Assembly (NCBI GenBank): GCA_963768055.1
Contig: CAVYGN010000002.1
Coordinates: 1,824,112 to 1,888,111, forward strand
Reading direction: 5' to 3'
Length of the DNA: 64,000 nt
From: an uncultured Spirochaetota bacterium
GTDB lineage: Bacteria; Spirochaetota; Brevinematia; Brevinematales; JAOACQ01
Shown here in pieces: positions 24,123 to 47,559 of the stretch (position 1 is its first letter; every line of letters begins with the position of its first letter). A model generated the notes under the pieces. It was not told where the DNA came from. It saw nothing but the letters and a program-made list of their open reading frames with translations, and made no database searches. The translations under genes were made by a program, and so were the position numbers.

Positions 24123-24204
24123 ATAAGTAGCGAAAAACCTTTGATTTTCTGAATGACTTGTTTTATAATAATATAAGTAGCGAAAATAGAATATTTCGCT
24201 ATTT
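24123..24204 (+). promoter_or_regulatory. Recombinase promoter with flanking binding sites
   Basis: TTGATT-17-TATAAT (24141-24169); ATAAGTAGCGAAAA twice; AAGTAGCGAAA-8bp-TTTCGCTATTT inverted repeat at 24175-24204. Confidence 0.7.
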
Positions 24205-24214
24205 AGAGGTTTTT

Positions 24215-26714: not shown

Positions 26715-26777
26715 TGACCCGCTCCCCAAAATTTGGTCCAACTTATATGTTAGTATATAATATAAGGAGGACATTTT

Positions 26778-27074
26778 ATGGCGAAGAAAGGTTTCACACC
26801 GGAACAGATTATTCAGAAACTCAGGGAAGTCGAAGTTAACCAGTCAAAGGGCATGAGCATGGCCGAATGTATCAGGCAAATCGAAGTAACAGAACAAACC
26901 TATTACCGCTGGAGGAAAGAATACGGCGGTATGAGGACAGACCAGGCCAAAAGGCTCAATGAACTGGAAAAGGAAAATAGCAGGCTCAAAAGGATAGTAG
27001 CTGATAAAGAGCTTGACATACAGATACTCAAAGAATTCATGAGGGTTGAATCAAAAAACTCCTCAGCCCGGTAA
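26778..27074 (+). CDS. IS3 transposase OrfA
   Basis: HTH segment TEQTYYRWRKEYGGM and leucine zipper. Confidence 0.9.
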   Translation: MAKKGFTPEQIIQKLREVEVNQSKGMSMAECIRQIEVTEQTYYRWRKEYGGMRTDQAKRLNELEKENSRLKRIVADKELDIQILKEFMRVESKNSSAR

Positions 27075-27268
27075 AGAGAAATTTAACAGTCATTGAGGTT
27101 TGTAATAATCTCGAAATATCTCAACGCCGGGCTTGCCTGACAATCGATCTCTGGAGAAGTTCAGTAAGATACCAACCAAAGAAAACAGATGAAGAAGAAA
27201 GGCTGACGGAAGACATTATCAAACTGGCGACGTCTTACGGCCGCTATGGATATAAAAGGATCACATCG

Positions 27269-27904
27269 ATGCTCAGGGAAGAAGGATGGAGGGTCAATCA
27301 CAAGAGGGTTCTAAGGATATGGCGCAAAGAGGGGCTAAAAGTCCCCAAAAGGCATCCGAAGAGAAAAAGACTGTGGCTTAACGATGAATCCTGTGTAAGG
27401 TTAAGGGCCGAACATCGCAATCATGTATGGAGTTATGACTTTGTCCAGGACAGGACAAGCGACGGCAGGCCGATAAAAATATTGACCCTTGTTGATGAAT
27501 ATACCAGGGAAGCGCTGGCTGTGGATGTAGAAAGGCAAATAAAGTATCCCTATTTAATAGACAGATTATCGGAACTGTTTATTGAAAAGGGAACGCCTGA
27601 ATATATCCGGAGCGACAACGGGTCTGAATTCATCGCCAAACCGCTCCGGAAATGGCTTAAAAGTGTGAACGTAAAAACCCTCTACATAGAACCTGGAAGC
27701 CCCTGGGAAAACGGATATGTTGAATCGTTCAACGGAAGACTCAGGGATGAATTTCTTAACGGAGAACAATTCGATACGCTTTTTGAAGCTAAAGTATTGA
27801 CCGAGAGATGGAGGAGGGAGTATAATACAGTAAGACCTCACAGCTCACTGGGTTACCGTCCACCGGCCCCGGAGGCTATTTTTTTGGCTGCAAAAGCTTC
27901 TTAA
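27269..27904 (+). CDS. IS3 transposase OrfB (DDE), joined to OrfA by frameshift
   Basis: WSYDFV, SDNGSEF and NGYVESFNG motifs. Confidence 0.92.
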   Translation: MLREEGWRVNHKRVLRIWRKEGLKVPKRHPKRKRLWLNDESCVRLRAEHRNHVWSYDFVQDRTSDGRPIKILTLVDEYTREALAVDVERQIKYPYLIDRLSELFIEKGTPEYIRSDNGSEFIAKPLRKWLKSVNVKTLYIEPGSPWENGYVESFNGRLRDEFLNGEQFDTLFEAKVLTERWRREYNTVRPHSSLGYRPPAPEAIFLAAKAS

Positions 27905-27943
27905 ACTAACTTATAAACTGGACCAAAGAATGGGGAGAGGTCA

Positions 27944-29335
27944 CATATAGAAAGCGCTGGACAACTATTTAAACATAGTGAAATGAAATACTTACCTAAT
28001 TTATCTAATAATATAAAATGTGGCAATTCTCTTATAGCCAGCGATTTTTATGAAAGCAAGGACAGCCTTTTTGATAAAGAAACCTTAAGATTAATTAATG
28101 CATTTGATTGGGTTGGCTCCAACGGTTTTAAAAAAATCATGGATGAAGGTGGTTTTGATTGTGTGATAGGGAATCCTCCTTGGGGTAGTTTTATTTCAGA
28201 AGAAGAAAAAAAATATTTAATTAAAAAATTTAAGAATAAAAAAGGAGAAGCGGAATCACATTTATATTTTATTGAAAAAGGTATGATATTATTAAATCAA
28301 AGTGGTTTGTTAGGCTATATAACACCTAATACTTGGTTAACAGTTATAAATTCAGCGGAAATAAGAAATTATTTACTTCAAAATTATTCAATTAAACATA
28401 TTCGAGAGTTATCAAAATATATATTCAAAGATGCTCCTGATATAGTTCCTATTCTTGTTTTTATTTCAAAGGATAAGAGCAATAAAACATGTGATGCACA
28501 ATTATCAACAGAAATAAAAATTCAAGAATCTAATTTCAAACTATCCTTTATTTCTAATAAAATTAACCAAGAAACCTGGCTTAATAGTAATATGAGTATT
28601 ATTAACTTAAGATTATCTAAAAGTGTTAAGAGTATTTTAAATAAATGTAATGAAATAAAAAATCATTTAATTGATCTTACAGATATTTTATATGGAATAA
28701 AAACAGGAGATAATGAAAAATATTTATCATTTCAACCTTTTGAAAATAATTGTGTAAAAGCTTTGAAGACAGGTGAAATTAAGCGTTATTATTTAGAATG
28801 GAAAGGTTTATATCTTAAATGGAATCCCAATCTTGCAGGCTATAGACAAACCCCTGTTGATATTCCAAAGATTATTATTCAATATATAAGAAAAATAAGC
28901 ATGCCAAGAAGAATTATTGCTGCTTTAGATGAAGATGGGGTTTATTATCCGTTGAATAATTACTCTTATGTAATATTAAAACCGAATCAAGTCTTTTCAT
29001 TAAAGTACATACTCGGAATTCTTAATTCTAATCTCATAAATTATTATTTCTCAAATACATTTATTGATTACAATATTAAACCTACTTATCTTCAGTTATT
29101 GCCAATAGTAAATATTGATTTAAATGATAAAATACTCTTGAATACTTATTCAACAATAATTTCTCTTGTCGATCAAATGATTGCCACACAAAAAAGTCTT
29201 CAAATTGCTCAAATCGAACAGGATAAGGTATTATTAAACCAACAATTTGAAATTCTTAATAAAAAAATAGATAAATTGGTTTATGAACTTTATGGTCTAA
29301 CAGAAGAGGAAATTAAGGTGGTGGAGGGGGAATGA
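27944..29335 (+). pseudogene. 3' half of a type IIG (Eco57I/TaqI-C-like) restriction-modification gene, truncated by IS3
   Basis: NIKCGNSL, VIGNPPW (motif IV), C-terminal IDKLVYELYGLTEEEI; motif I absent; frame open from the IS end. Confidence 0.85.
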
Positions 29336-29426: not shown

Positions 29427-30290
29427 ATGAATGAAAATGAATTTGAAATTTATTATGTGAAACATATTTATGTAAATACTTTTAAAAAAATAATAGAGGA
29501 ATATGAAAAGTTAAAACGAACAAATCATATTTGGCTTTTCAAGGGTCATAGTGATTCTACCTGGCATTTATCTACTATGTTTGAAAGATGTTTGAGAAAT
29601 TATCCAATTGATAATAAAAAAAAGATTGAGATTGAAAAAGAGATCATAAAAGAATTTGAAAGAAAAGCGGCACTTTATCTTGATGAAATTCCCGACCATA
29701 ATAATTATTTGGAATGGCTGTCCCTAATGCGGCATTATGGAGCTCCATGTAGAGCATTGGATTTTACATATTCATTTTATGTAGCTTTATATTTTGCAAT
29801 AGAAGAAATGAAATGGAATGAGAAAGATAATAAAATAAAGAGTTGTGCTGTTTATGCCATAAACAATAACTTATTTAAGTCATCTAAGCTAAAAAGTAGA
29901 TATTTATTTATGCCAAATATGGATGGATCAGAATTTGATACTGATAAAAAAAGAAAAAAATTTATTTGGGATAAAGATAATCCTGATAATTTTGTGTTCA
30001 ATTTAACTCCTTATTTTTTGAATAAACGGATTACAATTCAACAAGGTACATTCCTTTTACCCTGGAATATTGAAGAAAAATTTGAAGATAATCTAAAAGG
30101 AAATTGTGATTTAAATTGCCCCAAAAAATCCCAACATTATATAAAAAAAATGATTATTACATTAACAAAAAAAGAAAGAAAAGAAATCATTCAAGAACTC
30201 CATAAAATGAATATCAATAAAGCGACATTATTTCCTGGAATTACAGGTTTTGCCGAATCTCTCAGCATTAGGTTGGAACTTGATAAATGA
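29427..30290 (+). CDS. FRG domain protein
   Basis: WLFKGH, MRHYGAPCRALDFT, RITIQQGTF and TLFPG motifs. Confidence 0.88.
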   Translation: MNENEFEIYYVKHIYVNTFKKIIEEYEKLKRTNHIWLFKGHSDSTWHLSTMFERCLRNYPIDNKKKIEIEKEIIKEFERKAALYLDEIPDHNNYLEWLSLMRHYGAPCRALDFTYSFYVALYFAIEEMKWNEKDNKIKSCAVYAINNNLFKSSKLKSRYLFMPNMDGSEFDTDKKRKKFIWDKDNPDNFVFNLTPYFLNKRITIQQGTFLLPWNIEEKFEDNLKGNCDLNCPKKSQHYIKKMIITLTKKERKEIIQELHKMNINKATLFPGITGFAESLSIRLELDK

Positions 30291-30318
30291 TTGCTTTTAG
30301 ATAGGTTGTGAAATGTCA

Positions 30319-30379
30319 GACCCGAATGAATGAACCTGCAGGAGAGTTGTTGAAGCGGATTATTGAGGAGAAGGGATGA
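30319..30379 (+). pseudogene. Relic of a type I R-M specificity subunit (HsdS) C-terminus
   Basis: Reads DPN(D)EPAGELLKRIIEEKG* with a 1-nt insertion. Confidence 0.6.
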
Positions 30380-30652
30380 AATAATGAACAATTTTTCAAT
30401 ATATAAATACTTACCCAACGATTTTGCTGATAACTTTATTACAAAAGGTGAAGTCCTTTTTAGACCTCTAACTTATTTTATAAAAGAATTTAATGAAAAA
30501 ATTACTCTGATATCAGATATTTTTATATTTATACTTATGGCCATGTATTTTATTAGTTCAATATAAACAGGTATATAAATCGGAATTTCCCATTATAATA
30601 AATGTTTTGTCTTTTCCCTCTGCATTTCCATTCCAGCCTGCCACATTGAATT

Positions 30653-30681
30653 TTGATAAAAGCGCCAAGAGGGGATAGAAT
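30653..30681 (+). promoter_or_regulatory. Sigma70-like promoter in junction repeat (copies at 31780-31808, 32367-32395, 33568-33596)
   Basis: TTGATA-17bp-TAGAAT in all four copies. Confidence 0.8.
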
Positions 30682-30717
30682 AAAGGAATGTCAACAAATA
30701 AATTTTAAGGGGAAGAT

Positions 30718-31083
30718 ATGAAAATAAAAACACGAGAACAAATTCCATCTGAAGCTATTGTTGAGCGTTATGGTGTTAATAAAGAGCTTGTGATTGGTGA
30801 ATATGATGATTCTAACCAGATTGTATTAAGAATAATAAGTCTTGATGTAAACAAGTTTATTCCTGTCCATATACATGATTTTCCTCATATCTGGAAGATT
30901 GAAAAAGGTCTTGGCTTATTAACTGATAATGATGGTATTGAGCATAGAGTAGAGGCAGGGCAATTCCTTTTTATTAAAAATAATGAAAAACATGGTATTA
31001 GAAACATTGGGGATGATAAACTTGAATATTTATGCTTCGGGACAATTGAAAGCGAAAAAATAGCTCCTCAAAAAGCTGATTAA
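30718..31083 (+). CDS. Cupin domain protein
   Basis: PVHIH...GLG...GQFLFI..NEKHGIRN. Confidence 0.85.
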   Translation: MKIKTREQIPSEAIVERYGVNKELVIGEYDDSNQIVLRIISLDVNKFIPVHIHDFPHIWKIEKGLGLLTDNDGIEHRVEAGQFLFIKNNEKHGIRNIGDDKLEYLCFGTIESEKIAPQKAD

Positions 31084-31124
31084 AAAGATTTTTGGAGTAT
31101 TAATGGTTCGATTATACTGGAGGC

Positions 31125-31736
31125 ATGATGAGTAATGAAATACAATCTCTTGGATTTAATCCGACTGGTATAAAAGGAAAATTTACTGGTATTTTAATGA
31201 ATATTATTCATGGCAATCAATATAAAAAAATTATTAAAAAATACATACTGAATAGAGTTAATTCAAGAGATGAGCTTAAAATATTAGATATTGGTTGTGG
31301 AGGAGGAAAAGCAGTAAATATTTTTTCAATATTGTTAATGAACTCAAAAATTTATGGAATTGACCATTCCGCTGATATGGTAGCTCTTTCAGGCAAAGTC
31401 AATAAAAAAGGCATTAAAGAGGGTAATGTTGAAATAAATCAGGGAGATATAATAGCTCTTCCTTATTCAGATAGATATTTTGACATGATAACGGCTTTTG
31501 ATACTATAAATTTCTGGAATGATTTTAATAAAGCTATTTCTGAAATAATAAGAGTATTGAAAAAAGGCGGGGCTTTCATTATAGTAAACGCTTATCCAAA
31601 AGAAGGGACAAAATGGTGGGATTTTGTAAAATTTAAAAATGATAGTGAATATCGGGAAGCATTGGTAAAACATAATTTTTCAGATATAAATATTATTATT
31701 GATAAAAACAATATAATAATACAGGCTAAAAAATAG
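31125..31736 (+). CDS. Class I SAM-dependent methyltransferase
   Basis: ILDIGCGGG, GIDHS and RVLKKGG motifs. Confidence 0.92.
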   Translation: MMSNEIQSLGFNPTGIKGKFTGILMNIIHGNQYKKIIKKYILNRVNSRDELKILDIGCGGGKAVNIFSILLMNSKIYGIDHSADMVALSGKVNKKGIKEGNVEINQGDIIALPYSDRYFDMITAFDTINFWNDFNKAISEIIRVLKKGGAFIIVNAYPKEGTKWWDFVKFKNDSEYREALVKHNFSDINIIIDKNNIIIQAKK

Positions 31737-31832
31737 TCTATTGCTCTTCCCCCCTCTGCTTTGCCAGACTCTAATAATTTTGATAAAAGCGCCAGGAGGG
31801 GATAGAATAAAAGAAATAAATGAAGGAATATT

Positions 31833-32318
31833 ATGGATACAAATGAAATAAATGATATTGAAATGATAAAATTATTAATTGAAATAATTAAATGGGGCAA
31901 AGAAATAGTAATATCAAATAATAACGAGCTATTGTTATACCAACAATTGAGTAAAATAAACACCTTATATTTTGATTTGGATGAATCATCAGATGATAAA
32001 CAATATCCAGAACCTCCAAGTTTTGATTATGATAAAATCGCCAAAAATGTTCAATTTAACTTTAAAAAATTTGGTTATTATAATATTCCATTAGAGATTA
32101 CTGAGAATATAGGAGAAACAGGATTAAGTGTTGGAGATGCAGTTGATGACTTATCTGACATTATAAGAGATTTTCTTGGAATCAATTGGTATTATGAAAA
32201 TACTTCATTAGGAAATGCAATCTGGTACTTTAAATTTTTATTTAAAACTCATTTTGGACTTCATCTTATTAATTTAATGATGTATCTACATAATTATTTG
32301 TTTTATAAAAACCAATGA
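31833..32318 (+). CDS. DUF5063-like protein
   Basis: DAVDDLSDI..D and W.F...F..HFG.H pattern. Confidence 0.65.
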   Translation: MDTNEINDIEMIKLLIEIIKWGKEIVISNNNELLLYQQLSKINTLYFDLDESSDDKQYPEPPSFDYDKIAKNVQFNFKKFGYYNIPLEITENIGETGLSVGDAVDDLSDIIRDFLGINWYYENTSLGNAIWYFKFLFKTHFGLHLINLMMYLHNYLFYKNQ

Positions 32319-32428
32319 AATATCTCTTTTCCTTCCCCCTTCTATCCGTCATACTCTATTAAAATTTTGATAAATCTTTATGATGGGATTAGAATAATGG
32401 TGAATGTCATGGAATAGGAGATGGCAAG

Positions 32429-33115
32429 TTGTATAATGATTATATGACCAAAAAACTAATAGATAATGGCGCCACTCTTGTAGGTTTTGCTGATTTAACT
32501 GTTCTACCTGAAAATATCAGACATTCTTTTCAATATGGAATTGTAATTGCGATAGCATTAGATAAAAAAATTGTTTCCCGAAATCTCACTGGACCTCAAA
32601 TGGACTACTATAATGAAGAAATGAATGTAAATGATAAATTGGATGAATTATGTGAGTATTCAGCCGAACTAATTAAAAAGGAAGGATTTGATACCTTTCC
32701 TCAATCCAGAAGATTAATAAAAGTAGATGATAATTTTAGAACTTTGCTTCCACATAAGACTATAGCTACATTAGCGGGAATTGGCTGGATTGGTAAATCG
32801 GCGGTTATGGTCAATAAAGATTATGGATCTGCTATTAGATTAACATCGGTTTTAACGAATATACCTTTCAAGACGGGCATTCCAATTACCGAATCATTAT
32901 GCGGTAAATGCGATATTTGTGTTTTTCATTGTCCGGGAAAAGCTATAAAAGGCAATATGTGGAATCCTGGGGTTGATAGGAATAAATTAGTTGATGTTAA
33001 AATATGTAAAAAAACCGCTACTGAAAGTGGAAAGATATTTAATCAAACTGAAGTGATGTGTGAAATATGTTTTTCAATATGCCCATATACAAAAAAATAC
33101 ATTAATTCAGATTAA
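32429..33115 (+). CDS. QueG/reductive-dehalogenase-like 4Fe-4S ferredoxin-domain protein
   Basis: HKTIATLAGIGWIGK, CGKCDICVFHCP and CEICFSICP motifs. Confidence 0.88.
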   Translation: MYNDYMTKKLIDNGATLVGFADLTVLPENIRHSFQYGIVIAIALDKKIVSRNLTGPQMDYYNEEMNVNDKLDELCEYSAELIKKEGFDTFPQSRRLIKVDDNFRTLLPHKTIATLAGIGWIGKSAVMVNKDYGSAIRLTSVLTNIPFKTGIPITESLCGKCDICVFHCPGKAIKGNMWNPGVDRNKLVDVKICKKTATESGKIFNQTEVMCEICFSICPYTKKYINSD

Positions 33116-33169
33116 GTATATTCCGCTCCCTCTGCTTTGCCTGCTAAAGAAATTTTAAGGAGTAATAAA

Positions 33170-33505
33170 ATGAAAAACATCGTGGGTCTTATTCTAATAA
33201 TAAGTTTATTTACTTCCTGCACAACTCTAATCAATTCATCGAAATCAATTGGTGATTTTAATATTTCAGTCACTGCATCAGAAAATAATAATGGTGATTT
33301 TATCAGAATAAGAGGGAAAAACATATCCAGCGCTTTATATATAAAAGAATATGATATAATTTTCAAAAGTGATAAAGTATTTGTAAAAATATTTGAGACC
33401 CTTAAAGATACAGGATATTCAGATGGATACGATATTCAATTTTATATTCCGAAAAGCATTAAATTTATTATCCTCGGGGATAATGAAATTGTCTGGAAGA
33501 GATAA
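33170..33505 (+). CDS. Small putative lipoprotein
   Basis: AAGGAG RBS; MKNIVGLILIISLFTSC lipobox. Confidence 0.7.
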   Translation: MKNIVGLILIISLFTSCTTLINSSKSIGDFNISVTASENNNGDFIRIRGKNISSALYIKEYDIIFKSDKVFVKIFETLKDTGYSDGYDIQFYIPKSIKFIILGDNEIVWKR

Positions 33506-33645
33506 TTTATTCCACCCTTTCACTCCCTTTGCCTTCCCCTTTCCAGCTTGCCATACTCTCTTGAATTTTGATAAAAGCGCCCGGAGAGGATAGAATAAAG
33601 GAAAATTTCACAATGAGATTTTAAATAGATACTGAGGAGATTTTA

Positions 33646-34101
33646 ATGGATTACAAAAACATGACTGCTCCATGCGGGATTCCTTGTTTTGAATGTGTGT
33701 CATATAAAGCAAAATCAAATGAAGCTATAAAAAAGAGGGTTTCGGAAGGAACGGGATTGGCTTACGATAAATCAGATTGTGAGGGCTGCCGAAATAGGAA
33801 TGGTAAAGCCTTTTTAGCTGAAAAAAACAATATATTCCCCGAAGGTAAACCTTTGTTGTTAAATGAAAAAGGTCAATGTAAGATTTTTCTTTGTACTGAA
33901 AAAAGAAAAATTCACAATTGTAGCGAATGCGATAATTTCCCTTGTGATAATCTTCAACCATTAGCAGATAGAGCAGATAAAATTCCACATAACCTGAAAA
34001 TTTACAATTTGTGTTTGATAAAGAAATTAGGGCTTGAAAAATGGGCGGAAGAAAAAGCGGCAAAAACAATGAATGATTACAGGACAAAAAAATTTGATTG
34101 A
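33646..34101 (+). CDS. DUF3795-like Cys-rich protein
   Basis: APCGIPCFEC, CEGCR and CSECDNFPC motifs. Confidence 0.8.
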   Translation: MDYKNMTAPCGIPCFECVSYKAKSNEAIKKRVSEGTGLAYDKSDCEGCRNRNGKAFLAEKNNIFPEGKPLLLNEKGQCKIFLCTEKRKIHNCSECDNFPCDNLQPLADRADKIPHNLKIYNLCLIKKLGLEKWAEEKAAKTMNDYRTKKFD

Positions 34102-34208
34102 TTTTTGATAAAAACTATAGCTCATCCGCTCCCCCTGCTTTGCCTGCTATGAGGGATGGGGGGAAAGAAATATAAGAGGTTAATTAATTTAAAAGAATAG
34201 GAGAGTAA

Positions 34209-35207
34209 ATGGATACTGCAGTAATCGAAAACGAATTATTAGATATTGTATATAGCTATCGAAAAGCTCAGCTTCTTTATGTTGCCACCAAATTGAACAT
34301 TTCCGATATTTTAGCGGATGGGCCCAAGTCAAGCGATGAAATAGCCCTGATTACTGAAACAAATTCTGATTCTATATATAGAGTAATGAGAGCCTTATCA
34401 AGTTTTGGGATTTATAAGGAGAATCCTGATAAATACTTCAAGATAACTGAAAAAGGTGAATTATTAAAAAAAGATAGTCCAAGTTCAGTCAGAATAAATG
34501 TTGTAATGCGAATGGATGAATATAACTGGAAACCCTGGGGAGAATTACTAAATAGTGTTAAGACTGGTGAAAATGCATTTGAGAATATTTTTGGTATGAA
34601 TTTATTTGAATATCTGACTAAAAACCCAGAATCATCAAAAACATTTAGTAAAGCTATGGGAACTTTTACTCAAAAAATCATAAAACTTGTTTTAGATAAT
34701 TATGATTTTTCTTCCTATAATTTGATTGCTGATATCGGCGGAAGCAATGGTGATTTATTAAGGCAAATATTATTAAAATATTCACATATATCGGGTTTAT
34801 TGTTTGACTTGCCAATTGTTATTGAAAATGTAAATCCTGATATTTTTGAACCAAGTATATCAAACAGATTAAAATTAGTCAGTGGAAGTTTTTTTGACTC
34901 GATTCCAACAAGTTGTGATTTATATATTTTTAAGAAGATAATTCATGATTGGGATGATGAACATTCAATAAAAATCCTTACAAATTGTTATAATGCCGCA
35001 AAAAAAGGATCTAAAATTTTAATAATTGAAAATGTTATAGATCCGCAAAATAAAAATTCAGCAACGATAATTAATGATATTCATATGCTTGTTCAAACAA
35101 TTGGTGGCCGAGAAAGAACTCAGGATGAATATTATAAATTACTGCAGGAAGCAGGATTTGAACCACTAACAGGATGCTTGAATTATATCGAAGCGATAAA
35201 GAATTGA
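34209..35207 (+). CDS. O-methyltransferase (dimerisation + Methyltransf_2 domains)
   Basis: ADIGGSNG, GSFF, IIHDWDD and GGRERT motifs. Confidence 0.92.
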   Translation: MDTAVIENELLDIVYSYRKAQLLYVATKLNISDILADGPKSSDEIALITETNSDSIYRVMRALSSFGIYKENPDKYFKITEKGELLKKDSPSSVRINVVMRMDEYNWKPWGELLNSVKTGENAFENIFGMNLFEYLTKNPESSKTFSKAMGTFTQKIIKLVLDNYDFSSYNLIADIGGSNGDLLRQILLKYSHISGLLFDLPIVIENVNPDIFEPSISNRLKLVSGSFFDSIPTSCDLYIFKKIIHDWDDEHSIKILTNCYNAAKKGSKILIIENVIDPQNKNSATIINDIHMLVQTIGGRERTQDEYYKLLQEAGFEPLTGCLNYIEAIKN

Positions 35208-35285
35208 ATAATTAAAGTATTCTCTCCCCTCTGCTTTGCCTGCTGTGAGGGATGGATATAATGAATATGATAAAAGAATAAAATT

Positions 35286-36044
35286 ATGAGAACAATTATT
35301 ATTAGTTCATTCTTTTCTGGAGCAATAGGAACAATTATTGGGAGTATAATAGGTATTTTTCTTAAAGATTTTATTATTACTAATTATTTTATCAAGAAAA
35401 AAGAAAAAAATGAGTTAATAGCAGTATACAAAAAATATAGAATTCCAATCAGAAAAGCGGCAGTAGAATTACATACAAGATTTAATGAAGTTATTGAGAA
35501 ATATCCTCCAATTTATCTTAAAAGTAATGTTTTAAAAATAAAACAGGAGAGTATAAAAACAAATACTATTGCTGATGAGCATTTTCAAAAATATAAATTA
35601 GTTAGTTCCATTTATCGATTATATGCTTTTTTAGGTTGGATTGAACTTTATAGGCAAGAAATTATATTATTGGATTGTGGATCAGAAAAAAGAAATTGTG
35701 TTATTAATAAATCAATTGATAATATAATATCCTGGTTAGCAGATGGTCAATTAAATATAAATAATGATTGGGAAAATTGGGATGATTATTTGATATTTCG
35801 TGAAGAATGTAGAGCAATAGGTGAAATGATGATTATAAATAATAATGGAAGAAAAGAAATAATTGGATATATGAAATTTGTTGAATTTTTTGAAAATAGT
35901 ATTATTAATAATGATAATCAATGGATTGGTAAAGGTATCAATCTTTTAATAGATTTAAAAATAAAAAAAGATTTTAGAAAGAATAGAATAGAAAATATAA
36001 AGAATGAGTTGTCAATATTAATTGGTTCATTAGAAATAGTTTAA
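35286..36044 (+). CDS. Hypothetical protein with N-terminal TM helix
   Basis: 252 aa AT-rich ORF between junction repeats. Confidence 0.75.
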   Translation: MRTIIISSFFSGAIGTIIGSIIGIFLKDFIITNYFIKKKEKNELIAVYKKYRIPIRKAAVELHTRFNEVIEKYPPIYLKSNVLKIKQESIKTNTIADEHFQKYKLVSSIYRLYAFLGWIELYRQEIILLDCGSEKRNCVINKSIDNIISWLADGQLNINNDWENWDDYLIFREECRAIGEMMIINNNGRKEIIGYMKFVEFFENSIINNDNQWIGKGINLLIDLKIKKDFRKNRIENIKNELSILIGSLEIV

Positions 36045-36155
36045 CATAAAAATGAGTACATATAATCAAACAATTGTGTCTCTTCACCTTTCATTTCCCC
36101 CTCACCCATACCCGATAATTAATTCACAAAAATAAACATAAAGGAGATTGGGATT

Positions 36156-36527
36156 ATGCCAGGTAAAAGAAAAAGTGCAGAAGAAAGAGTAAAAGAACTT
36201 CAGCAGAAAATTAAAGACATTAAAGCAGCAGAACTATTAAAAGGAAAAAAGGAAGATAAGAAATGGATTAAGATTGACCCAAAAATCGGCGCATTTGTAA
36301 GAGAGGCATTTCAAAACAATTTCGACGGAATGACCCTTGATAATTTGAAAGCTGAAATAAAGAAGATAATTGAACCGAGGAAGCCAGGAGCAAAGCGAGG
36401 TCCTAAACCTAAAAGCGAGAAAGAACCTAAATCTAAGAGGGCTTATAATAAGAAACCGAAAGCTGTAGAAGCTGAAAATACTCCACAAGCGGAAGGGGAA
36501 GCTGAACAGACACAGAAGGTGGAATAA
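36156..36527 (+). CDS. Lys-rich putative nucleoid-associated protein
   Basis: Coiled-coil N-terminus, KRGPKPK and KRAYNKKPK basic motifs; AAGGAG RBS. Confidence 0.6.
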   Translation: MPGKRKSAEERVKELQQKIKDIKAAELLKGKKEDKKWIKIDPKIGAFVREAFQNNFDGMTLDNLKAEIKKIIEPRKPGAKRGPKPKSEKEPKSKRAYNKKPKAVEAENTPQAEGEAEQTQKVE

Positions 36528-36541
36528 GGGAATTTAATATG

Positions 36542-36570
36542 CAGGCTGACTGATATGGTTGGCCTGTTTT
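36542..36570 (+). terminator. Rho-independent terminator
   Basis: CAGGCTGAC/GTTGGCCTG hairpin followed by TTTT. Confidence 0.7.
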
Positions 36571-36653
36571 CTCATCCTTTCAATAATTAACTTTGTTCGG
36601 CATTGGAACAAGGTTCATATCAGGAAAATTCCAATAATATTTGTTATAAGCTA

Positions 36654-36682
36654 TTGAGAGAATTTAGAAACGGGGGTATAAT
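36654..36682 (+). promoter_or_regulatory. Family-2 repeated promoter (second copy at 38137-38165)
   Basis: TTGAGA-17bp-TATAAT; CTATTGAGAGA.TTT.GAA.CGGGGGTATAAT in both copies. Confidence 0.8.
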
Positions 36683-36707
36683 TAAAAAAATTCATAAGGG
36701 AGCAATT

Positions 36708-38051
36708 ATGGATTTAAATAATTCTTTAAAAGAAATGTCTGAAAATTGGGTTCAGGGTTCTTATAGCATGTTCTCCTTGAAAATAAGTTTAAAAGATGAT
36801 AGTGAAGAAGAAAACAGACCATCTATAATGCATGAATATACACATTATTTACAAAATATAACCACTTTTCATGGTTTTACAAAAATTGATGATTACATTA
36901 GATTATTCTTATTTATTTTCACTAAATTAGGATCAAATCAGGTTGATCCAACTATTCCTCTCAATAAAGATAAAAATTTAATGGAGGAATTGGAAAATCA
37001 TAATTTAGAAAATTTGAATAAATCAAGAAAATTAGGAATGGAACGTATTAATAATGAATATATCTTTGATGATTATATTTGTGATGATTATTCAATTATT
37101 ATACAAGAGATTATAAATCCTTACCATAATAAAAAAATACAAATGCCATTTCTTATTATAAATAATAAAAAAATTCCATTAAATGAAATAGTAATTCGAG
37201 AAAATATGGCAATGATAAATACTGTATTATCAGAAAGTTCGGATATGGAATCAAAATATAAAAAAATAAGTGCGTTTAAATATAAAGAATATACTTCAAT
37301 ATTTCTGTTTATTATACATTATTTCCCTGATAAAGATACATTACAATTAACTTATCAAATATGTGAGTTAGCATTAAATGTTTTGCCCATCGAAAAAAGT
37401 ATTTATAATATTATTCAATTTATAAAAGATAATTACAAAAACCTTAATGATAAAAATGAAATTAATATTATTGAAGAAATAAAAATCAATTTAAATTATA
37501 TTGATGTTTTTAATAGGCTATATTCAACAGTTCAGAAAATGGCAAATGAAAGAATTGAAATGTTTGATAAAATCATAAAAACAAATGGGAATGATTTTGT
37601 AATATTTTTAAAAAACTTTTATTTTTACATATTAAAAGGATTAGGTCTGAGATTCAATAAGCAAAGTCTATATTTAAACCCAATTACAAATGATTATTTG
37701 AATAGTTTAATTTCAATAATTGGTTCTCCATTTATTTATTATGAAAATAAAAAAGTGGTAAGACAATTAAATAATATTGACACATATTTTCTGGATGATT
37801 TTATATTTCTCCATTCTTCCTTGGAAGTGTTCTTTACTGCATACTATGAAAAATTACAGTGTTGCCCCTTTTATAATTCGGGTATTTGTAAAGAAGATAA
37901 GAATAATAATTGTAAAGATAATTGTTTGCAAAATTTTATGCAAGATAATTATGAATTGTGTTTATTGAATAATTCTTTACTTTGTTCTGGAATACGGAGT
38001 ATTGAAAGATGGGAAAATGAAAAAATTGGAAAAAATATTATTTTACTTTAG
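36708..38051 (+). CDS. Hypothetical protein with HExxH motif and Cys-rich C-terminus
   Basis: MHEYTHYLQ; C-terminal CCPF...C...C...C. Confidence 0.7.
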   Translation: MDLNNSLKEMSENWVQGSYSMFSLKISLKDDSEEENRPSIMHEYTHYLQNITTFHGFTKIDDYIRLFLFIFTKLGSNQVDPTIPLNKDKNLMEELENHNLENLNKSRKLGMERINNEYIFDDYICDDYSIIIQEIINPYHNKKIQMPFLIINNKKIPLNEIVIRENMAMINTVLSESSDMESKYKKISAFKYKEYTSIFLFIIHYFPDKDTLQLTYQICELALNVLPIEKSIYNIIQFIKDNYKNLNDKNEINIIEEIKINLNYIDVFNRLYSTVQKMANERIEMFDKIIKTNGNDFVIFLKNFYFYILKGLGLRFNKQSLYLNPITNDYLNSLISIIGSPFIYYENKKVVRQLNNIDTYFLDDFIFLHSSLEVFFTAYYEKLQCCPFYNSGICKEDKNNNCKDNCLQNFMQDNYELCLLNNSLLCSGIRSIERWENEKIGKNIILL

Positions 38052-38777
38052 ATTTTGAAAAATATATCTTTCTTTACCCCCTTCCCCCTTTATTTTAACA
38101 TTGGGTTCTTATCCATAAATATATTGTTAAAATCTATTGAGAGATTTTTGAAGCGGGGGTATAATGAGGAGAAACATTTGTATTTTATCTGGGGGTACAA
38201 ATGGGAATTTATGAAAAAGGTTCAGAATGGAGAAGGTGGGATTTACATATTCATACTAAAAATACAGCTAAAAATGATAGGTTTAAATCTAAAGATTTTG
38301 AATCTTTTTGTGAGATATGTTTTAAAAAAGCATTAGAAAAGAACATAGCGGTAATTGGAATAACTGATTATTATTGTATTGAAAATTATAAACAAGTTAA
38401 ACAATATGTTTTTGATATAAATAAAAAAACATGTTTTTCTGATGAAGAAAAATCGAAAATTAAAAAAATCTTCATTCTCCCAAATGTAGAACTACGAATT
38501 TTACCTGTAGCCGATAGTGGAAGATTAGTTAATATCCACTGTTTGTTTAATCCATTATTTGAAGATAAATTAGAAAACAATTTCTTTGATATTATACACC
38601 ATTATGGAGGATCAGGCAAAAAGTTCCCTATGAATAGACAAGGTTTAATAGATTTAGGAAAATCAATGGATTCAACTTTAAAAAAATCGAAAGATCAATA
38701 CAAAAAGGGATTAGAAACATTTACTGTTTCCCCCGTGTGTTAGGATAGTTGTCGCCTAAAATATTAGGAGACAAAAA

Positions 38778-39260
38778 ATGAATAGTCAAATTCGTTCAGA
38801 GGAATTCAGGAAATCTATCGTTCAAAAGATGTGTATGCCAGGAGGAAAAACAGTATCTGAACTGAGCCAGGAAATAGGAGTATGTGAACAAACCCTTTAC
38901 AACTGGAGGAAAATGATCCAGAATAATGTATCCAGAGGATTCCAGGATAGAAGCCCGAGAGGCTGGAAATTATCTGATAAATATCAGGCGGTAGTAGACG
39001 CAGCAAGCCAATCGGGAGAAGAGTTAGGACAGTGGTTGAGAAAAAATGGTCTCCAGTCGACTCATATCGAACTCTGGAAACAGGAGTGTTTATCAGTGAT
39101 ATCTAATAACTCATACAGAGAAGAAAACAAGGGTTTGAAAGCAAAAATCATAGAGTTAGAAAAAGAAATTAACCGTAAGGATAAAACTATAGCCGAGGTT
39201 ACTTCTCTGCTGGTGCTTAAAAAAAAACTGAACAAGCTGTTCGGGATCGAGGAAGATTAA
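38778..39260 (+). CDS. IS3 transposase OrfA
   Basis: HTH GVCEQTLYNW; ends LLVLKKK at the frameshift site. Confidence 0.88.
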   Translation: MNSQIRSEEFRKSIVQKMCMPGGKTVSELSQEIGVCEQTLYNWRKMIQNNVSRGFQDRSPRGWKLSDKYQAVVDAASQSGEELGQWLRKNGLQSTHIELWKQECLSVISNNSYREENKGLKAKIIELEKEINRKDKTIAEVTSLLVLKKKLNKLFGIEED

Positions 39261-39265
39261 CTCCA

Positions 39266-40294
39266 TTGGATATACGCATAGATATCTGTGCCTTGATTAA
39301 TGAGGCTGTTACGACAGGGGCCAGCAGGGATAAGGCTTGTGAAGAATCTGGCTATGATATAAGGACCATACAGCGCTGGAATAAAAATCTTGAGGGAGAC
39401 AGAAGAAAATTGAGAAATGTAATGCCTTCAAATGCCCTGTCGGCCGAAGAAAGGGAGGAGATCATCTCCTGCTGTTGCAGCGAGAGATTTAGAGATATGA
39501 CGCCGAATGAAATAGTGCCCATGCTGGCAGAGGAAGGTCGGTATATAGCATCAGAATCATCTTTTTACCGCGTTTTAAAGGACAATGATTTGCTGCACCA
39601 TAGATACGAAACGAAGCCGAAAACGGCAAGGAAAACGCCAAGAGAACTGGAAGCGACGGGTCCTAATCAGGTATGGAGTTGGGATATTACATATATATCC
39701 AGTCATATAAAAGGTAAGTATTTCTACCTCTATATGATCGAAGATGTCTGGAGCCGTAAGATAGTCGGCTGGAAAATGCACGAGGAGGAAAGCTCTGATC
39801 ATGCCGCAAGAATGGTGGCAGAGATCGGAGAAACCATTGATTTGAAAGGCTTGTATTTACATTCTGATAATGGTTCTCCTATGAAAGGGGCTACGATGTT
39901 AGCGACCTTGCAGAGGTTACAGGTTATGCCGTCGTTTTCAAGGCCGAGTGTAAGTAACGATAACCCTTACTCAGAATCATTGTTTAAAACATTGAAATAT
40001 AATGTGAAATACCCAGGCAATTTCGAGACAATGGAATCGGTAGAAATATGGATGCAAAATTTTGTAGACTGGTATAATAATAAACATCTTCATTCAGGGA
40101 TCGGATATGTCACACCAGCACAGAGACATGAAGGTAAAGATAAGGCGATACTCCTGAAGAGAGCGGAAACTTATGCGGCTGCAAAAAGCAGACATCCTGA
40201 AAGATGGTCAGGAGAATCTAAAAAATGGGAACGGATAGAATCGGTATTTTTAAACCCGAGTAAGACTAACAAGGAATCGTTGGTTGCGGCGTAA
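39266..40294 (+). CDS. IS3 transposase OrfB (DDE)
   Basis: WSWDITY, HSDNGSPMK and DNPYSESLF motifs. Confidence 0.92.
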   Translation: MDIRIDICALINEAVTTGASRDKACEESGYDIRTIQRWNKNLEGDRRKLRNVMPSNALSAEEREEIISCCCSERFRDMTPNEIVPMLAEEGRYIASESSFYRVLKDNDLLHHRYETKPKTARKTPRELEATGPNQVWSWDITYISSHIKGKYFYLYMIEDVWSRKIVGWKMHEEESSDHAARMVAEIGETIDLKGLYLHSDNGSPMKGATMLATLQRLQVMPSFSRPSVSNDNPYSESLFKTLKYNVKYPGNFETMESVEIWMQNFVDWYNNKHLHSGIGYVTPAQRHEGKDKAILLKRAETYAAAKSRHPERWSGESKKWERIESVFLNPSKTNKESLVAA

Positions 40295-42698
40295 AATAAA
40301 AGCGACAACTCCCTTGACAAAAACCGTTTCTCATGAAAGTTTACAAGATTTATTAGATGAAAATATGGATTACAGAGAAAATACCATCATTGTAGTTAGT
40401 AATTCTAATAAAGATGGGGCTTCTGCTTTTCAAAAACATTATGATCTTTTTGAAGATTGTGATTCAAGCAGTCTTGAAGGAGTTAGAAAATCAATTTATT
40501 GTATTTCTCAAGCAATATTTTCAAGCAATGAAGAAGACAGAAAATATTTTTTGGGGAAAAAGAAAGATGACGAAGAAACAGTAAAATCAAAATGCGGTTC
40601 ATTAAAGCCTTGTATTCATGGAAGTGATGCTCACACTGAAGATGAATTATTTTCTCCTGATAAAAATAGATATTGCTGGATAAAAGCAGATCCAACTTTT
40701 GAGGGTTTAAAACAGATTATTTATGAACCAGAAGGTCGAGTAAAAATTCAGGAAGAAAAACCAATTTCTCCTGTAAGAAAAATATCTAATATAACTTTAA
40801 ATTTTGAAAAAAATACTGATATTCGACTTAAGGAAAAAAATGAACAAGATATATTTTGTTTTTCTGGAGTTAAAGAAATTATACCTTTGAATGATTATTT
40901 TAATTGTTTTATTGGAGGTAGAGGTACTGGGAAAAGTACTTTATTAAATTTAATTTACAAATCATTTTATCCGGGAAAAGATACTGATTATTTTAATAAA
41001 AATAAAATAATTCTTGATGACAAGGAAATAAATATTTCAGAAACAGTTATATTAGATAGCACTGCTGAAAAAATTGAGTTTCTTCAACAAAATCAAATTG
41101 AAGACTTTGCTATTGATCCAATTGAATTTACAAAAGCAATTTATGATAGATTAAAAAATAAAGAAATAGAAAAATTTGAAAATATTATTTCTGAATCCAT
41201 TAGGCAAATAAATAAACAAATTGAAAATATTCAAAATCAGTTGATCATTGGAAAAGAAATTGAGGAATTAAACATTGAATATAAATCAAATAAGAAAATC
41301 ACAGATACTCTTGATAAGAATGAATACAAAATAATTATAGAAGAGATACAAAACCTAAATAATAAATATTTAATTTTAAAAAATGATAGGGATACAATAG
41401 AATCATTAATAAATGATGTTGATAACTTTTTATCTAATCATATTAAGTATAGAATTGTTGATAGTTCATCTGAATATAATATAAGTTTTAATAAATTTAT
41501 TGATTATTTAGAAAAAATTAAAACAGAAATATTAGATAATAAAAATTTTATTAAACTTAAAGATGAAGAAAATACTTTGCTTAAAAAAATTAGTGAACAA
41601 AAAGAAAAACTTGAAATATATTTAACTGAACAAGGATTAAGTGAAGAAAATCTTGAGGATGTTAAAACTGCAAGTACTAAAACCGAAGAATTGAAAATTC
41701 AGATAGAAAAGAAAAAATTAGAATTAAAAAATATATTGAAAAAGAATGGTAATATTTCAATTGATAATATTAATAAAAATAAAAATGAGTTTGGAGAAAT
41801 ATTACAAAAAAGAATTAATGAATTCATAAATATATTAGATGAAGTAAATAAGCAAAATCCAAAAGATGTTGATAAAATTGAATTATCATTTTCATATAAT
41901 GAAGAATTGGCAAAATCTGAATTATGTGAAGAATTCCATAATATATTTAAATCTTATAAAAAAAAATACAATACAAAATCAACAGATATTAATGATTGTT
42001 TGTTTCAAAATAACCCTTATGACTTAATAGATGGTAAAATAACATATGAAGAATTTATGAATAAAATTAAAGGTGATAATCAATATAATCAGTGTTTAAA
42101 TGATATATTTAAAAAAAAATTTAATTATGAAATCTATTTGCTTCTACTTAATAAATATTATCAGAATCTATTCAAATATTTGAAAATTGATGTAATGTAT
42201 AAGAATAAGCCAATGCTTCAGGCTTCTTTTGGTCAGAAATGTACAGCTGTAATTATTATAATGCTATTATTTGGGCATAATCCAATTATTATCGATGAAC
42301 CTGAAGCACACCTTGACAGTTCATTAATAGCAAATTATCTTGTTAATTTGATAATGAAAGAAAAAATTAAGAGGCAAATTATATTTGCAACACACAATGC
42401 GAATTTTGTAATTAATGCTGATGCCGAACAAATTTATATTTTAGAAATGCCTGAAAAAAGAACTAACTTTATTCAGACTACTATTGAAAATCAAATATAT
42501 AGAGATAAATTACTGAAACTTGAAGGAGGATCGGAAGCTTTTAAAAAAAGAGAAAATAAATATGGCTTAAAAAAATAATAATAGAGTGAATATTCAAAAA
42601 TTAATAAAATTATTTATTTTTGTACATTTTTAAATTCCATTTTCTTTACCCCCTTACCCCTTTATTATATAATACCCTATTACAAAGCGAGGTTTATT

Positions 42699-47547: not shown

Positions 47548-47559
47548 ATTCACTTCCTC

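Follow-up and report, generated by a model that had tools for sequence, protein, structure and literature searches.

Promoter-bearing junctions between accessory genes of a Brevinematales-like chromosome resemble gene-shuffling motifs of T4-like phages more closely than an integron

The window analyzed here, i.e., the whole 64 kb stretch (64,000 nt) of contig CAVYGN010000002.1 from an uncultured Spirochaetota bacterium, contains a series of unrelated genes with similar spacers in between, which raises the question of whether these spacers belong to an integron, to a separate gene-capture system or to something else. The array described in the first-pass annotation is real: nine co-oriented AT-rich ORFs occupy 30718-36044 on the + strand, with related junctions in between (ORF list and sequence reading). 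The junctions measure 54-151 nt, not the 40-100 bp first given. The features are as follows:

30363..30566, + strand: ORF of 67 aa, no Pfam family, immediately upstream of J0
30604..30690, + strand: J0, degenerate C-rich half with a second partial copy inserted; promoter half TTGATA-17-TAGAAT at 30653-30681; nhmmer match 30614-30688, E 2.1e-19
30718..31736, + strand: two-gene module (Pfam) of a cupin gene (Cupin_2, 30718-31083, + strand) and a class I SAM methyltransferase gene (31125-31736, + strand), with no junction element between the two on sequence reading
31737..31817, + strand: J1, canonical C-rich half 31752-31767, promoter half 31780-31808; nhmmer E 7.5e-24
31833..32318, + strand: DUF5063-like gene (Pfam E 1.5e-4; 22.6 bits, under the cut-off of 27)
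32323..32403, + strand: J2, diverged copy, promoter 32367-32395; nhmmer E 2.9e-15
32429..33115, + strand: 4Fe-4S protein gene (Pfam Fer4_16)
33116..33169, + strand: J3, C-rich half alone (33128-33143), lacking a promoter half and leading directly into a ribosome-binding site
33170..33505, + strand: small putative lipoprotein gene, no Pfam family; signal peptide and Cys at the N-terminus judged by eye
33506..33605, + strand: J4, extended C-rich half and promoter half 33568-33596; nhmmer E 5.6e-23
33646..34101, + strand: DUF3795 gene (Pfam)
34102..34208, + strand: J5, C-rich half 34131-34146, then an alternative right half TGCTATGAGGGATGG (repeat family D6); no good promoter seen on reading
34209..35207, + strand: O-methyltransferase gene (Pfam Methyltransf_2 and Dimerisation)
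35208..35285, + strand: J6, C-rich half 35227-35242 and the alternative right half as in J5; by reading, TTGCCT-16-TATAAT with its -35 within the C-rich half
35286..36044, + strand: gene for a 252-aa protein of an uncharacterised family, no Pfam family
36045..36155, + strand: J7, end of array, C-rich tract alone (36080-36120), without conserved motif or promoter half
36528..42698, + strand: continuation with a second junction family (repeat families D9 and D16)

The 67-aa ORF may be a remnant of an earlier module. In the continuation, TTGAGA-17-TATAAT promoters of the second junction family lie at 36654-36682 and 38137-38165 (88% alike across 42 nt), and two stop codons are followed by C-rich tracts (38065-38091 and 42637-42660). 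The 252-aa protein is matched by 354 cluster representatives at E<=1e-3; top identity among the matches listed is 53% for a short fragment and 45% among near-full-length matches. Contigs of 1737 bp occur in both the O-methyltransferase and the DUF3795 match lists (P0023, P0281), either by chance or as a conserved gene pair. No phage match was obtained for the array.

The junctions are built of two recurring halves. The C-rich left half CCCYCTGCTTTGCCWG, reported to follow stop codons, is indeed exact at four junctions (31752, 33128, 34131 and 35227) and recurs at 30616 with 3 mismatches; if up to 3 mismatches are allowed, there are 7 matches against 0.84 expected, a number reached in 0/100 shuffles. 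C makes up a fraction of 0.24-0.42 of the first 45 nt past the stop codon in J1-J6 and of 0.40 in the junction of a related genome (see below), compared with 0.11 in the ORFs. On the right, a 34-nt promoter-like block has exact copies at 30651, 31778 and 33566 (expected, 0) and one diverged copy, and the four spacers said to carry a TTGATA-17-TAGAAT right half do so, at 30653, 31780, 32367 and 33568. Left and right halves assort independently among junctions, and J2 shares only 65-70% identity with the remaining long junctions. Neither CCCYCTGCTTTGCCWG nor the 34-nt block occurs elsewhere within the 64 kb window. A profile search (nhmmer --max) of the window and the relative's contig (L001) returned 6 matches at E<1e-9, every one inside the two arrays; the next best, at E 0.35 and 0.73, fell on the C-rich halves of J3 and J6, 10 further matches had E>=0.79, and no copy lay upstream of a gene outside the arrays in these 64 kb + 12 kb. 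The junctions are thus not scattered: repeats in the window are confined to the array, and the relative's genome has only two exact copies of the promoter block. These data support a conserved junction family limited to the array, with a putative near-consensus promoter, although promoter-like sites overall are not enriched in this AT-rich DNA (130 vs 112 +/- 12 in shuffles), which weakens the case for a promoter role.

Each junction had been proposed to be an imperfect palindrome. We compared local inverted-repeat alignments with 300 shuffles preserving the composition of each half, and only 1/5 long junctions stood above them: the score was matched by 101/300 shuffles for J0, 74/300 for J1, 80/300 for J2 and 138/300 for the relative's junction, compared with 1/300 for J4. 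On reading the sequence, TATTCTCTCCCCTC (35218) does match the reverse complement of GAGGGGATAGAATA at 13/14 positions, but this pairs two different junctions. The palindromy is mostly a pyrimidine tract opposite a purine tract. Single-stranded DNA folds were no better than those of shuffles on the + strand (10 sequences, z -0.64 to +2.14, best case still matched by 53/200) or on the - strand (9 sequences, z -0.60 to +2.17, best case matched by 51/200). The stem described for J2 is present (13 pairs, with bulges), but reaches only -4.4 kcal/mol (z -0.08), and on reading the alignment it pairs columns that are unpaired in other copies. The RNAalifold consensus (-5.08 kcal/mol) has an unfavourable covariation term (+1.32), with 1/12 pairs compensatory; J1 as RNA has z -2.56, equalled by 2/200 shuffles. 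The tracts are without stable or conserved hairpins. As first observed, attC boxes are absent, with GTTRRRY or RYYYAAC found in 0/8 junctions. The view of each junction as a hairpin of attC type, formed in ssDNA and with extrahelical bases, therefore fails, given folds no better than those of shuffles, no covariation and no R boxes, and the junctions are not attC-like.

The promoter block was searched for in 32.2 million contigs from 185,579 species genomes. It was found in one other contig only, from a Brevinematales MAG, in 2 copies 879 bp apart. The two genomes share a backbone (72.6% identity over 6372 nt) that stops exactly at the 3' end of tRNA-Ala, with 56-85% identity for six orthologous proteins, and the relative's array also lies downstream of this backbone. 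Its junctions flank MBL-fold, MTHFR-like and formyltransferase genes; tblastn of these three ORFs and four neighbours against the window gave no match. The first-pass annotation proposed looking for arrays of other gene content in related genomes, and in the one relative found the same junctions flank wholly different genes; identical gene order, which it named as evidence against its reading, is not what this relative has. The relative's first junction is a promoter half alone, and J1 is 86.7% identical to its long junction across 75 nt. Junction right halves are 84-89% identical, within and between genomes alike, compared with 62-67% for three orthologous intergenic regions. Junction conservation between the two genomes exceeds that of orthologous intergenic DNA, in a comparison of two genomes in which the relative's contig stops 1.1 kb past the second junction. 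In both genomes, the array ORFs have 22-34% GC, compared with 43-46% for the backbone and 43% for the relative's junction.

Three tyrosine recombinases are encoded 6-13 kb upstream of the array. None is linked to the junctions, and the statement that IntI is absent agrees with TIGR02249, on which two of them score 37-51 bits, under its cut-off of 265 (the third is unlisted). The short recombinase (24216-24859) has its own inverted-repeat site adjoining its gene, which is not repeated in the array. The surrounding island is in visible flux, with two IS3 copies, one IS21 and truncated or split defence genes.

Based on these observations, our leading reading, held tentatively and with somewhat less than even confidence, is that accessory-gene modules, each promoted separately, follow one another in a variable region downstream of tRNA-Ala(CGC) of a Brevinematales-like chromosome. 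Each module would be laid out as [promoter half - gene(s) - C-rich half], and therefore neighbours would meet in a composite junction of ~75-85 bp. In this junction, a C-rich, G-poor unstructured tract (core CCCCTCTGCTTTGCC) begins 0-25 nt past the stop codon, followed by ~10 variable bases and, at the right end, by a near-consensus sigma-70-type promoter with the conserved spacer AATTTTGATAAAAGCGCCnGGAGnGGATAGAATAA. The polarity of the modules is visible at the ends, where a promoter half alone opens the relative's array and a C-rich tract alone (J7) closes that of the window. Judging from the consensus match, the right half would drive transcription of the downstream gene, and the composition of the C-rich tract suggests that it may insulate modules, most likely as a Rho-utilisation-like site or else as a protein-binding site. 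A Rut-like role leaves unexplained the full identity of 14-15 nt of the C-rich core among copies and between genomes. In favour of separate modules, three neighbouring array genes have close homologues on separate contigs, and by eye no contig of at least 10 kb is common to their three match lists among the matches listed. Several points tell against this reading. The lipoprotein gene would need read-through of the C-rich tract, because J3 lacks a promoter. Relatives with 78-84% identity to the O-methyltransferase and DUF3795 genes exist elsewhere, and therefore some array genes may be ordinary lineage genes. Identity within a genome equals that between genomes; the copies thus do not look homogenised, as they might if they recombined often, and the longest unbroken identity between copies (~16-23 bp, by reading) is short for RecA-type exchange.

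Two other explanations appear unlikely, although each accounts for part of the data. One is a new site-specific capture system, in which a putative recombinase would act on the junction and cross over within its variable centre, modules would be excised and inserted in circular form and the recombination site would also serve as promoter. The same junction family around different genes in two genomes would fit such a system, as would conserved arms (CCCCTC...GAGGGG and GCTTT...AAAGC) opposed across the variable centre, the RNA fold of J1, the independent assortment of halves with single halves at array ends, and a C-rich core conserved beyond the need of a composition-based signal. The upstream recombinases point the same way, as does the backbone-like GC of the junction beside AT-rich genes, which recalls the lineage-specific sites of chromosomal integrons. 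Against it, inverted repeats lie within composition-matched chance in 4/5 long junctions, neither strand folds stably, the consensus structure lacks covariation, the relative has no recombinase gene between tRNA and array, and the array lacks the short recombinase's own site. Of the proposal of a separate capture system with a promoter-supplying site, the conserved promoter junctions and the different genes in the relative are supported, but the hairpin and a recombinase link are not; site-specific capture is therefore a possibility and not an inference carried by the data. The other explanation, which we regard as equally doubtful, is a shared regulatory region only, i.e., a regulated promoter/operator with its upstream element, duplicated before accessory genes and without a role in turnover; the arrays would then differ through flux of the whole island, to which its IS copies and broken defence genes point. 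A binding site under selection would agree with the conserved -35/-10 spacer and with conservation above orthologous intergenic DNA, and equal identity within and between genomes fits constraint, not copying. This explanation does not account for the same two-part junction around wholly different AT-rich genes in two genomes, since some process must bring junctions to genes or genes between junctions, and it sits poorly with the absence of copies upstream of any gene outside the arrays and with only two exact copies in the relative's genome.

It is very unlikely that the junctions are copies of a small mobile element of non-autonomous type (MITE, Correia-like or REP-like), with TTCTnTCCCCTC / GAGGGGATAGAA as its terminal inverted repeats, that inserted repeatedly between genes and carries an outward promoter. 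Promoter-bearing MITEs such as Correia elements are known, the location is intergenic, and an element of 75-85 bp would have inverted ends matching 10/12 to 13/16 in J0, J2 and J4; but these repeats are mostly within chance, every copy is oriented as the genes and confined to the two arrays, half elements stand alone at J3, J5, J6, J7 and the relative's first junction, and no target-site duplications were seen in the flanks on reading both arrays. Most improbable is an ordinary integron remnant, i.e., a CALIN (an attC cluster lacking integrase) with very divergent attC sites. Co-oriented, mostly single-gene units between related repeats of 54-151 nt would suit it, and CALINs without nearby intI are common according to part of PMC4889954; however, attC boxes are found in 0/8 junctions, a hairpin and any match at IntI level are lacking, and at least four junctions hold a promoter, whereas the same part of that paper states that "cassettes rarely contain promoters".

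Among known systems, the junctions of the modular array would, on our best reading, be functionally closest to the promoter-early stem-loops (PeSLs) of T4-type phages, mobile regulatory cassettes which parts of PMC2839356 and PMC4122927 describe as composite sigma-70 promoter/terminator motifs between accessory genes, with recombination between PeSLs shuffling modules. Both are repeated composite motifs that lie between a stop codon and the Shine-Dalgarno sequence of the following gene, combining a near-consensus sigma-70 promoter with an element thought to halt upstream transcription; both contain G and C tracts, are grouped where small accessory genes form a plastic region and have other genes between the motifs in relatives. 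Unlike the PeSLs of T4-type phages, the array is part of a bacterial chromosome without a phage match, its upstream element is an unstructured C-rich tract instead of a stable stem-loop, its C tract precedes its G tract (35-50 nt apart) and the sequences are unrelated; no mini-circles or recombinant joints were seen for the array. Integron arrays, sedentary chromosomal integrons and CALINs (in part of PMC4889954) share with it the co-oriented, mostly single-gene units, the lineage-specific repeat family in between, a gene content that differs in a relative, and small, poorly characterised genes. The array differs from integrons in having no integron integrase, R boxes or hairpin with extrahelical bases, and in junctions with a built-in promoter whose halves also occur apart. 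Phage morons are promoter-gene-terminator units, likewise autonomous, foreign in composition and placed between other genes, but they are single insertions with unrelated control sequences, whereas the units of the array share one junction family. Promoter-bearing MITEs and REP/BIME elements are also short intergenic repeats of inverted-repeat character that affect transcription (putatively so in the array); Correia and REP families are dispersed genome-wide in both orientations, unlike the array-confined copies in one orientation with separable halves. In another spirochaete, the Borrelia upstream homology box is a conserved promoter-bearing upstream block common to several variable genes and linked to recombination; it fronts paralogous lipoprotein genes on many plasmids, whereas the genes preceded by the junctions are unrelated and stand in one tandem array, and the junctions have a paired C-rich element. 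The gene family of this box is named in works cited by PMC10016077, as far as part of that paper indicates.

Taken as promoted modules, the array is closer in appearance to the gene-shuffling motifs of T4-like phages than to an integron. Its junctions may be portable regulatory cassettes where modules would be swapped, added or deleted by recombination, most likely homologous and between copies in different arrays, as proposed for the PeSLs of T4-type phages.

The nine co-oriented ORFs within 30718-36044 constitute an array of accessory genes separated by spacers (junctions J0 to J7), which the first-pass annotation had read as an integron-like capture system with palindromic, promoter-bearing junctions. 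Pfam confirmed the cupin, the class I SAM methyltransferase, Fer4_16, DUF3795 and the O-methyltransferase that it had named, while its DUF5063 was matched only below threshold; two array ORFs had no Pfam family. The array ORFs of this genome and of a relative, an uncultured Brevinematales MAG, have 22-34% GC, compared with 43-46% for the backbone and 43% for the relative's junction.

Junctions of the two arrays, with window positions, left half (C-rich post-stop motif) and right half (promoter block TTGATA-17-TAGAAT)
30567-30717, J0: extended C-rich left half, promoter right half
31737-31832, J1: canonical C-rich left half, promoter right half
32319-32428, J2: diverged left half, diverged promoter right half
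33116-33169, J3: canonical C-rich left half, no right half
33506-33645, J4: extended C-rich left half, promoter right half
34102-34208, J5: canonical C-rich left half, alternative right block TGCTRTGAGGGATGG
35208-35285, J6: canonical C-rich left half, alternative right block TGCTRTGAGGGATGG
36045-36155, J7, last in the window: C-rich tract only, no right half
Relative's first junction: no left half, promoter right half
Relative's second junction: canonical C-rich left half, promoter right half

Four junctions (J1, J3, J5 and J6) contain exact copies of the left motif CCCYCTGCTTTGCCWG, and J0 has one with 3 mismatches; its 7 matches compare with 0.84 expected, and 0/100 shuffles reached 7. Exact copies of the right block TTTTGATAAAAGCGCCNRGAGRGGATAGAATAAA occur in J0, J1 and J4 (0 expected), and J2 contains a diverged copy. 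All four right blocks hold TTGATA-17-TAGAAT (at 30653, 31780, 32367 and 33568), which matches 10/12 sigma-70 consensus positions with a conserved spacer, so that the promoter proposed for four junctions stands as a consensus match. When aligned, the junctions run from the stop codon through 0-25 variable nt to the C-rich block YTCYYCCCCTCTGCTTTGCC, followed by about 10 variable nt, AATTTTGATAAAAGCGCCnGGAGnGGATAGAATAAnGGAAA and a variable leader of 20-45 nt that includes the ribosome-binding site. The C-rich core of 14-15 nt is identical across copies and genomes, and the C fraction in the 45 nt after the stop codon is 0.24-0.42 at J1-J6 versus 0.11 in ORFs. When the window and the relative's locus were searched by nhmmer --max with a profile of five long junctions, six strong matches resulted (E 7.5e-24 to 2.4e-10); J3 and J6 came next through their C-rich halves (E 0.35 and 0.73, respectively), and the ten other matches are noise (E of at least 0.79). 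Because every strong match lies in one of the two arrays, the related junction family that had been described, and its confinement to the array, are real.

Left and right halves assort independently among the junctions, which fits modules composed of a promoter half, one or more genes and a C-rich half; the composition, with AT-rich genes and C-rich post-stop tracts, supports the same picture. The right half is the predicted promoter of the next gene, judging from its consensus match and conserved spacer, and the C-rich tract is a putative Rut-like site whose properties match those ascribed to Rut sites. Rho termination is described as mapped in a spirochaete (PMC10319736). The best-supported reading is one in which portable regulatory junctions would bound separately promoted accessory modules. 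A pure regulon promoter, with the junction as a shared control region only, is a less likely account. A second junction family was observed just downstream, past 36112 (36641-36682, 38124-38165, 38060-38097 and 42632-42669); its repeated promoter, TTGAGA-17-TATAAT at 36654 and 38137, has CGGGGG ahead of the -10, and its C-rich post-stop tract CTTTCTTTACCCCCTTMCCCC is also repeated, with tracts at 38065 and 42637. The architecture therefore reaches about 42.7 kb.

A second array for comparison came from a scan of 185,579 species genomes with the pattern TTTTGATAAA-N8-GAGNGGATAGAAT, a strict pattern covering the promoter half only, which matched a single other contig (L001), that of the relative, with two copies 879 bp apart. 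This contig is 72.6% identical to window positions 10996-17310 over 6372 nt, and six orthologous proteins are 56-85% identical. Backbone homology extends to the very 3' end of tRNA-Ala(CGC) and no further. This tRNA is located at 17239-17310 in this piece of bacterial chromosome and at 6451-6522 in L001; in the window, two integrases come next. In the relative, four backbone-like genes on the opposite strand (GC 0.43) precede an AT-rich array that consists of a promoter half alone, an MBL-fold gene, a full junction with C-rich and promoter halves, an MTHFR-like gene and the first part of a formyltransferase gene, cut off by the contig end inside the array. The window has no counterpart of any of these genes, and the prediction that other arrays would differ in gene content is borne out by this MAG, with the same junctions and different genes. 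Homology between the two arrays is limited to the junctions (85-97% over 33-75 nt), with no shared flanking module. Global alignments put right halves at 84-89% identity, whether the pair comes from one genome or from both, and whole long junctions at 77-86%, as against 62-67% for three orthologous backbone intergenic regions. Since the junctions are more alike than orthologous intergenic DNA while the genes differ, the comparison of these two genomes indicates that the genes between junctions are replaced while the junction is either constrained or exchanged.

The claim that each junction is an imperfect palindrome did not hold. The best local inverted-repeat alignment of each long junction was set against 300 shuffles in which both halves retained their own composition, and the score was reached by 101/300 shuffles for J0, 74/300 for J1, 80/300 for J2, 1/300 for J4 and 138/300 for the relative's junction, so that only J4 exceeds its shuffles. 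As the shuffles mostly match the scores, the symmetry is largely a pyrimidine tract opposite a purine tract, and the palindrome as a statistical feature was mostly rejected. The 13/14 complementarity quoted earlier is correct, but its two partners come from different junctions, the left half from J6 and the right half from others. The paired stem of J2 exists, but has z -0.08 as DNA and pairs columns that, by eye in the alignment, are unpaired in other copies. As single-stranded DNA, no junction folded better than dinucleotide shuffles on the plus strand (z -0.64 to +2.14, 10 sequences) or the minus strand (z -0.60 to +2.17, 9 sequences), and most folded worse in these 19 folds. Among RNA folds J1 alone stands out (z -2.56, 2/200 shuffles), with the other seven sequences between -1.55 and +1.05, the latter value belonging to the relative's junction, the closest relative of J1. 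RNAalifold on the five long junctions gave a consensus of -5.08 kcal/mol with an unfavourable covariation term (+1.32) and 1/12 pairs compensatory. No terminator-like site was found at any of J0-J7. Rfam returned only tRNA at the gathering threshold and three chance-level matches at E<=5 across 30300-43100, and a known RNA family at the junctions was rejected for want of a relevant match.

Among bacterial platforms on which unrelated single genes are stacked one behind another, only integrons are, to our knowledge, well understood. The absence of attC core boxes and of IntI, both noted at first pass, was upheld. RYYYAAC (R'') and GTTRRRY (R') occur 0 times in 8/8 junctions, and both strands are covered because the two are mutual reverse complements. 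Against the IntI model NCBIfam TIGR02249, two recombinases of the window scored 37.3 and 51.3 bits (cut-off 265) and the third was unlisted; the score for PRK15417 was 31 bits versus 435. Integrons and CALINs are marked by a nearby IntI, a tyrosine recombinase with an extra domain of about 35 residues, whereas the array has no IntI-level match, and by attC sites with a conserved imperfect ssDNA hairpin and extrahelical bases, which the junctions lack. An attC-like hairpin was rejected on the ssDNA folds of both strands, RNAalifold and the missing core boxes. The attC analogy fails on each feature tested, as there is no hairpin, no core box and no IntI-level match, and a degenerate integron is the less likely reading.

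Past the tRNA-Ala, GC falls from 0.39-0.45 to 0.26-0.39 up to about 46 kb.

Features of the low-GC stretch (window positions)
17422-18483, tyrosine integrase, first of a tandem pair
18721-19800, tyrosine integrase, second of the pair
24216-24859, short Xer-like recombinase
26778-27904, IS3 copy, adjoining the restriction-modification gene part
27983-29335, C-terminal part of a type IIG restriction-modification gene, matching only from about model position 486 of 1011
29427-30290, FRG / PDC-S15 gene, candidate defence
38201-38743 and 40284-42578, Ppl-type defence gene split by a second IS3
38778-40294, IS3-family element splitting the Ppl gene
46804-49116, minus strand, IS21 (istB-like 46804-47553, istA-like 47560-49116)

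The tRNA-Ala(CGC) looks like a tRNA-linked integration hot spot whose contents differ between the window and the relative. The C-terminal part of the Ppl gene matches PADLOC Ppl (E 1.2e-24), and HU, PilZ and TrpRS-like genes lie between the split Ppl gene and IS21. Neither 31833-32318 nor 35286-36044 in the array has a PADLOC match, whereas neighbours do, and an anti-phage role for these two array genes was rejected. Apart from the IS3 ends, no long inverted repeats bounding the array were found; the IS3 copy near 26778 has 39-nt terminal inverted repeats at 26719-26757 and 27902-27940. Direct repeats of 245 nt (87%) surround the IS21 genes at 46221-46465 and 49742-49986, and a metal-resistance cluster follows, with a CsoR-like repressor, a P-type ATPase with HMA domains and a DsbD_2/cupredoxin protein. 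At 62642-62778, a 137-nt copy (90% identical) of 17490-17626, which belongs to the 5' portion of the first integrase gene, has an in-frame stop and adjoins an rve_3-matching ORF on the minus strand (62792-63967); it may be a second-integrase remnant or the far island boundary. Other observations within the island include a lysine-rich protein of 123 aa (36156-36527) that matches no family and whose C-terminal half contains KRGPKPK, a stretch that by eye resembles AT-hook-like DNA binders; an HU-family gene at 42699-43019, 41 nt of which recur in inverted orientation at 21281-21321; and a 303-aa class I (Trp/Tyr-type) aminoacyl-tRNA synthetase-like ORF (44163-45074, backbone-like GC of 0.44), whose match begins at profile position 39 and which may be a truncated or accessory paralogue. 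Distant-mode blastn of 30560-36160 against 72,556 plasmid and 50,697 phage records gave no match, and a plasmid or phage origin of the array was rejected on this basis.

The array genes were also compared by their relatives. The O-methyltransferase has relatives of 83, 80, 79 and 78% identity (best 120 of 1085 at E<=1e-3) and DUF3795 of 84, 84 and 78% (best 120 of 268); the closest near-full-length relative of the 252-aa protein (35286-36044) is 45% identical among the matches listed (best 120 of 183), and this protein has 354 cluster representatives across all proteins scanned. Contigs in the three lists were compared by size alone, and by eye no size of at least 10 kb recurs from one list to another among the matches listed, except the window's own contig of 1,888,111 bp. 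One short size, 1737 bp, occurs in both the O-methyltransferase list (P0023, 50% identity) and the DUF3795 list (P0281, 68%), with room for both genes. This could be chance or a conserved gene pair; if the contig is the same, the two genes may be a conserved pair and not independent modules.

A site-specific recombination system would be compatible with arms that are conserved on either side of a variable centre and with halves that assort independently, and we consider it unlikely. Another reading, a chromosomal gene-capture platform in Brevinematales unrelated to integrons, with a two-part dsDNA site (C-rich arm, variable centre, promoter arm), a non-IntI recombinase and a promoter and insulator that each captured module would bring along or acquire, seems rather improbable. 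The short tyrosine recombinase (24125-24859 with its upstream sequence) consists of the catalytic domain only and is XerA/XerC-like (94-102 bits). An inverted repeat TAGCGAAA-N8-TTTCGCTA precedes it, with a direct half-site copy 50 nt upstream, and is probably its own site. Neither this site nor the half-site has further copies in the array: allowing 2 mismatches gave 8 matches where chance would give 9.6, and a link between the junctions and this recombinase was rejected. In the relative, the tRNA-to-array interval contains no recombinase gene. Spread as a MITE or REP family is also less likely: in the window and L001 no copies lie outside the arrays, and exact matches in the relative's genome fall in one contig only, under a strict pattern that diverged copies could escape, so the dispersal named at first pass as a refuting outcome was not seen. 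A terminal inverted repeat rises above composition-matched shuffles in J4 only, and no target-site duplications were seen by eye in the flanks.

For the preferred reading, portable junctions around separately promoted modules, the closest working analogue is the PeSL, the promoter/stem-loop cassettes of T4-type phages. Each PeSL combines a sigma-70 promoter and a terminator in one motif with G and C tracts, which sits between the stop codon and the Shine-Dalgarno in plastic regions, where recombination among PeSLs shuffles genes (PMC2839356, PMC4122927). As in PeSLs, a repeated intergenic motif holds a sigma-70 consensus promoter, here as a consensus match. Unlike PeSLs, which occupy hyperplastic regions of T4-type phages, the array lies in a bacterial backbone with tRNA and metabolic genes, its junctions have no stable stem-loop terminator or attenuator, and its sequence is unrelated; membership of the PeSL family was rejected on these differences. 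The literature searched had no paper that combines Brevinematales with integrons, and for integron-like arrays with promoters and intergenic repeats the entries listed (12 of 40) were, by their titles and opening lines, integron papers; the array was not found described in either search.

Integron cassette expression declines with distance from a single promoter. In contrast to the one promoter of integrons, the array supplies every module with its own conserved, predicted promoter and a conserved post-stop element. Should the junctions serve in exchange, a bacterial chromosome would join the T4-like phages as a setting for the PeSL idea; should a dedicated recombinase take part, the array would represent a second type of gene-capture system. 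In both cases, the junction offers a small, testable, putative promoter-plus-insulator unit from a phylum for which genetic tools are few.
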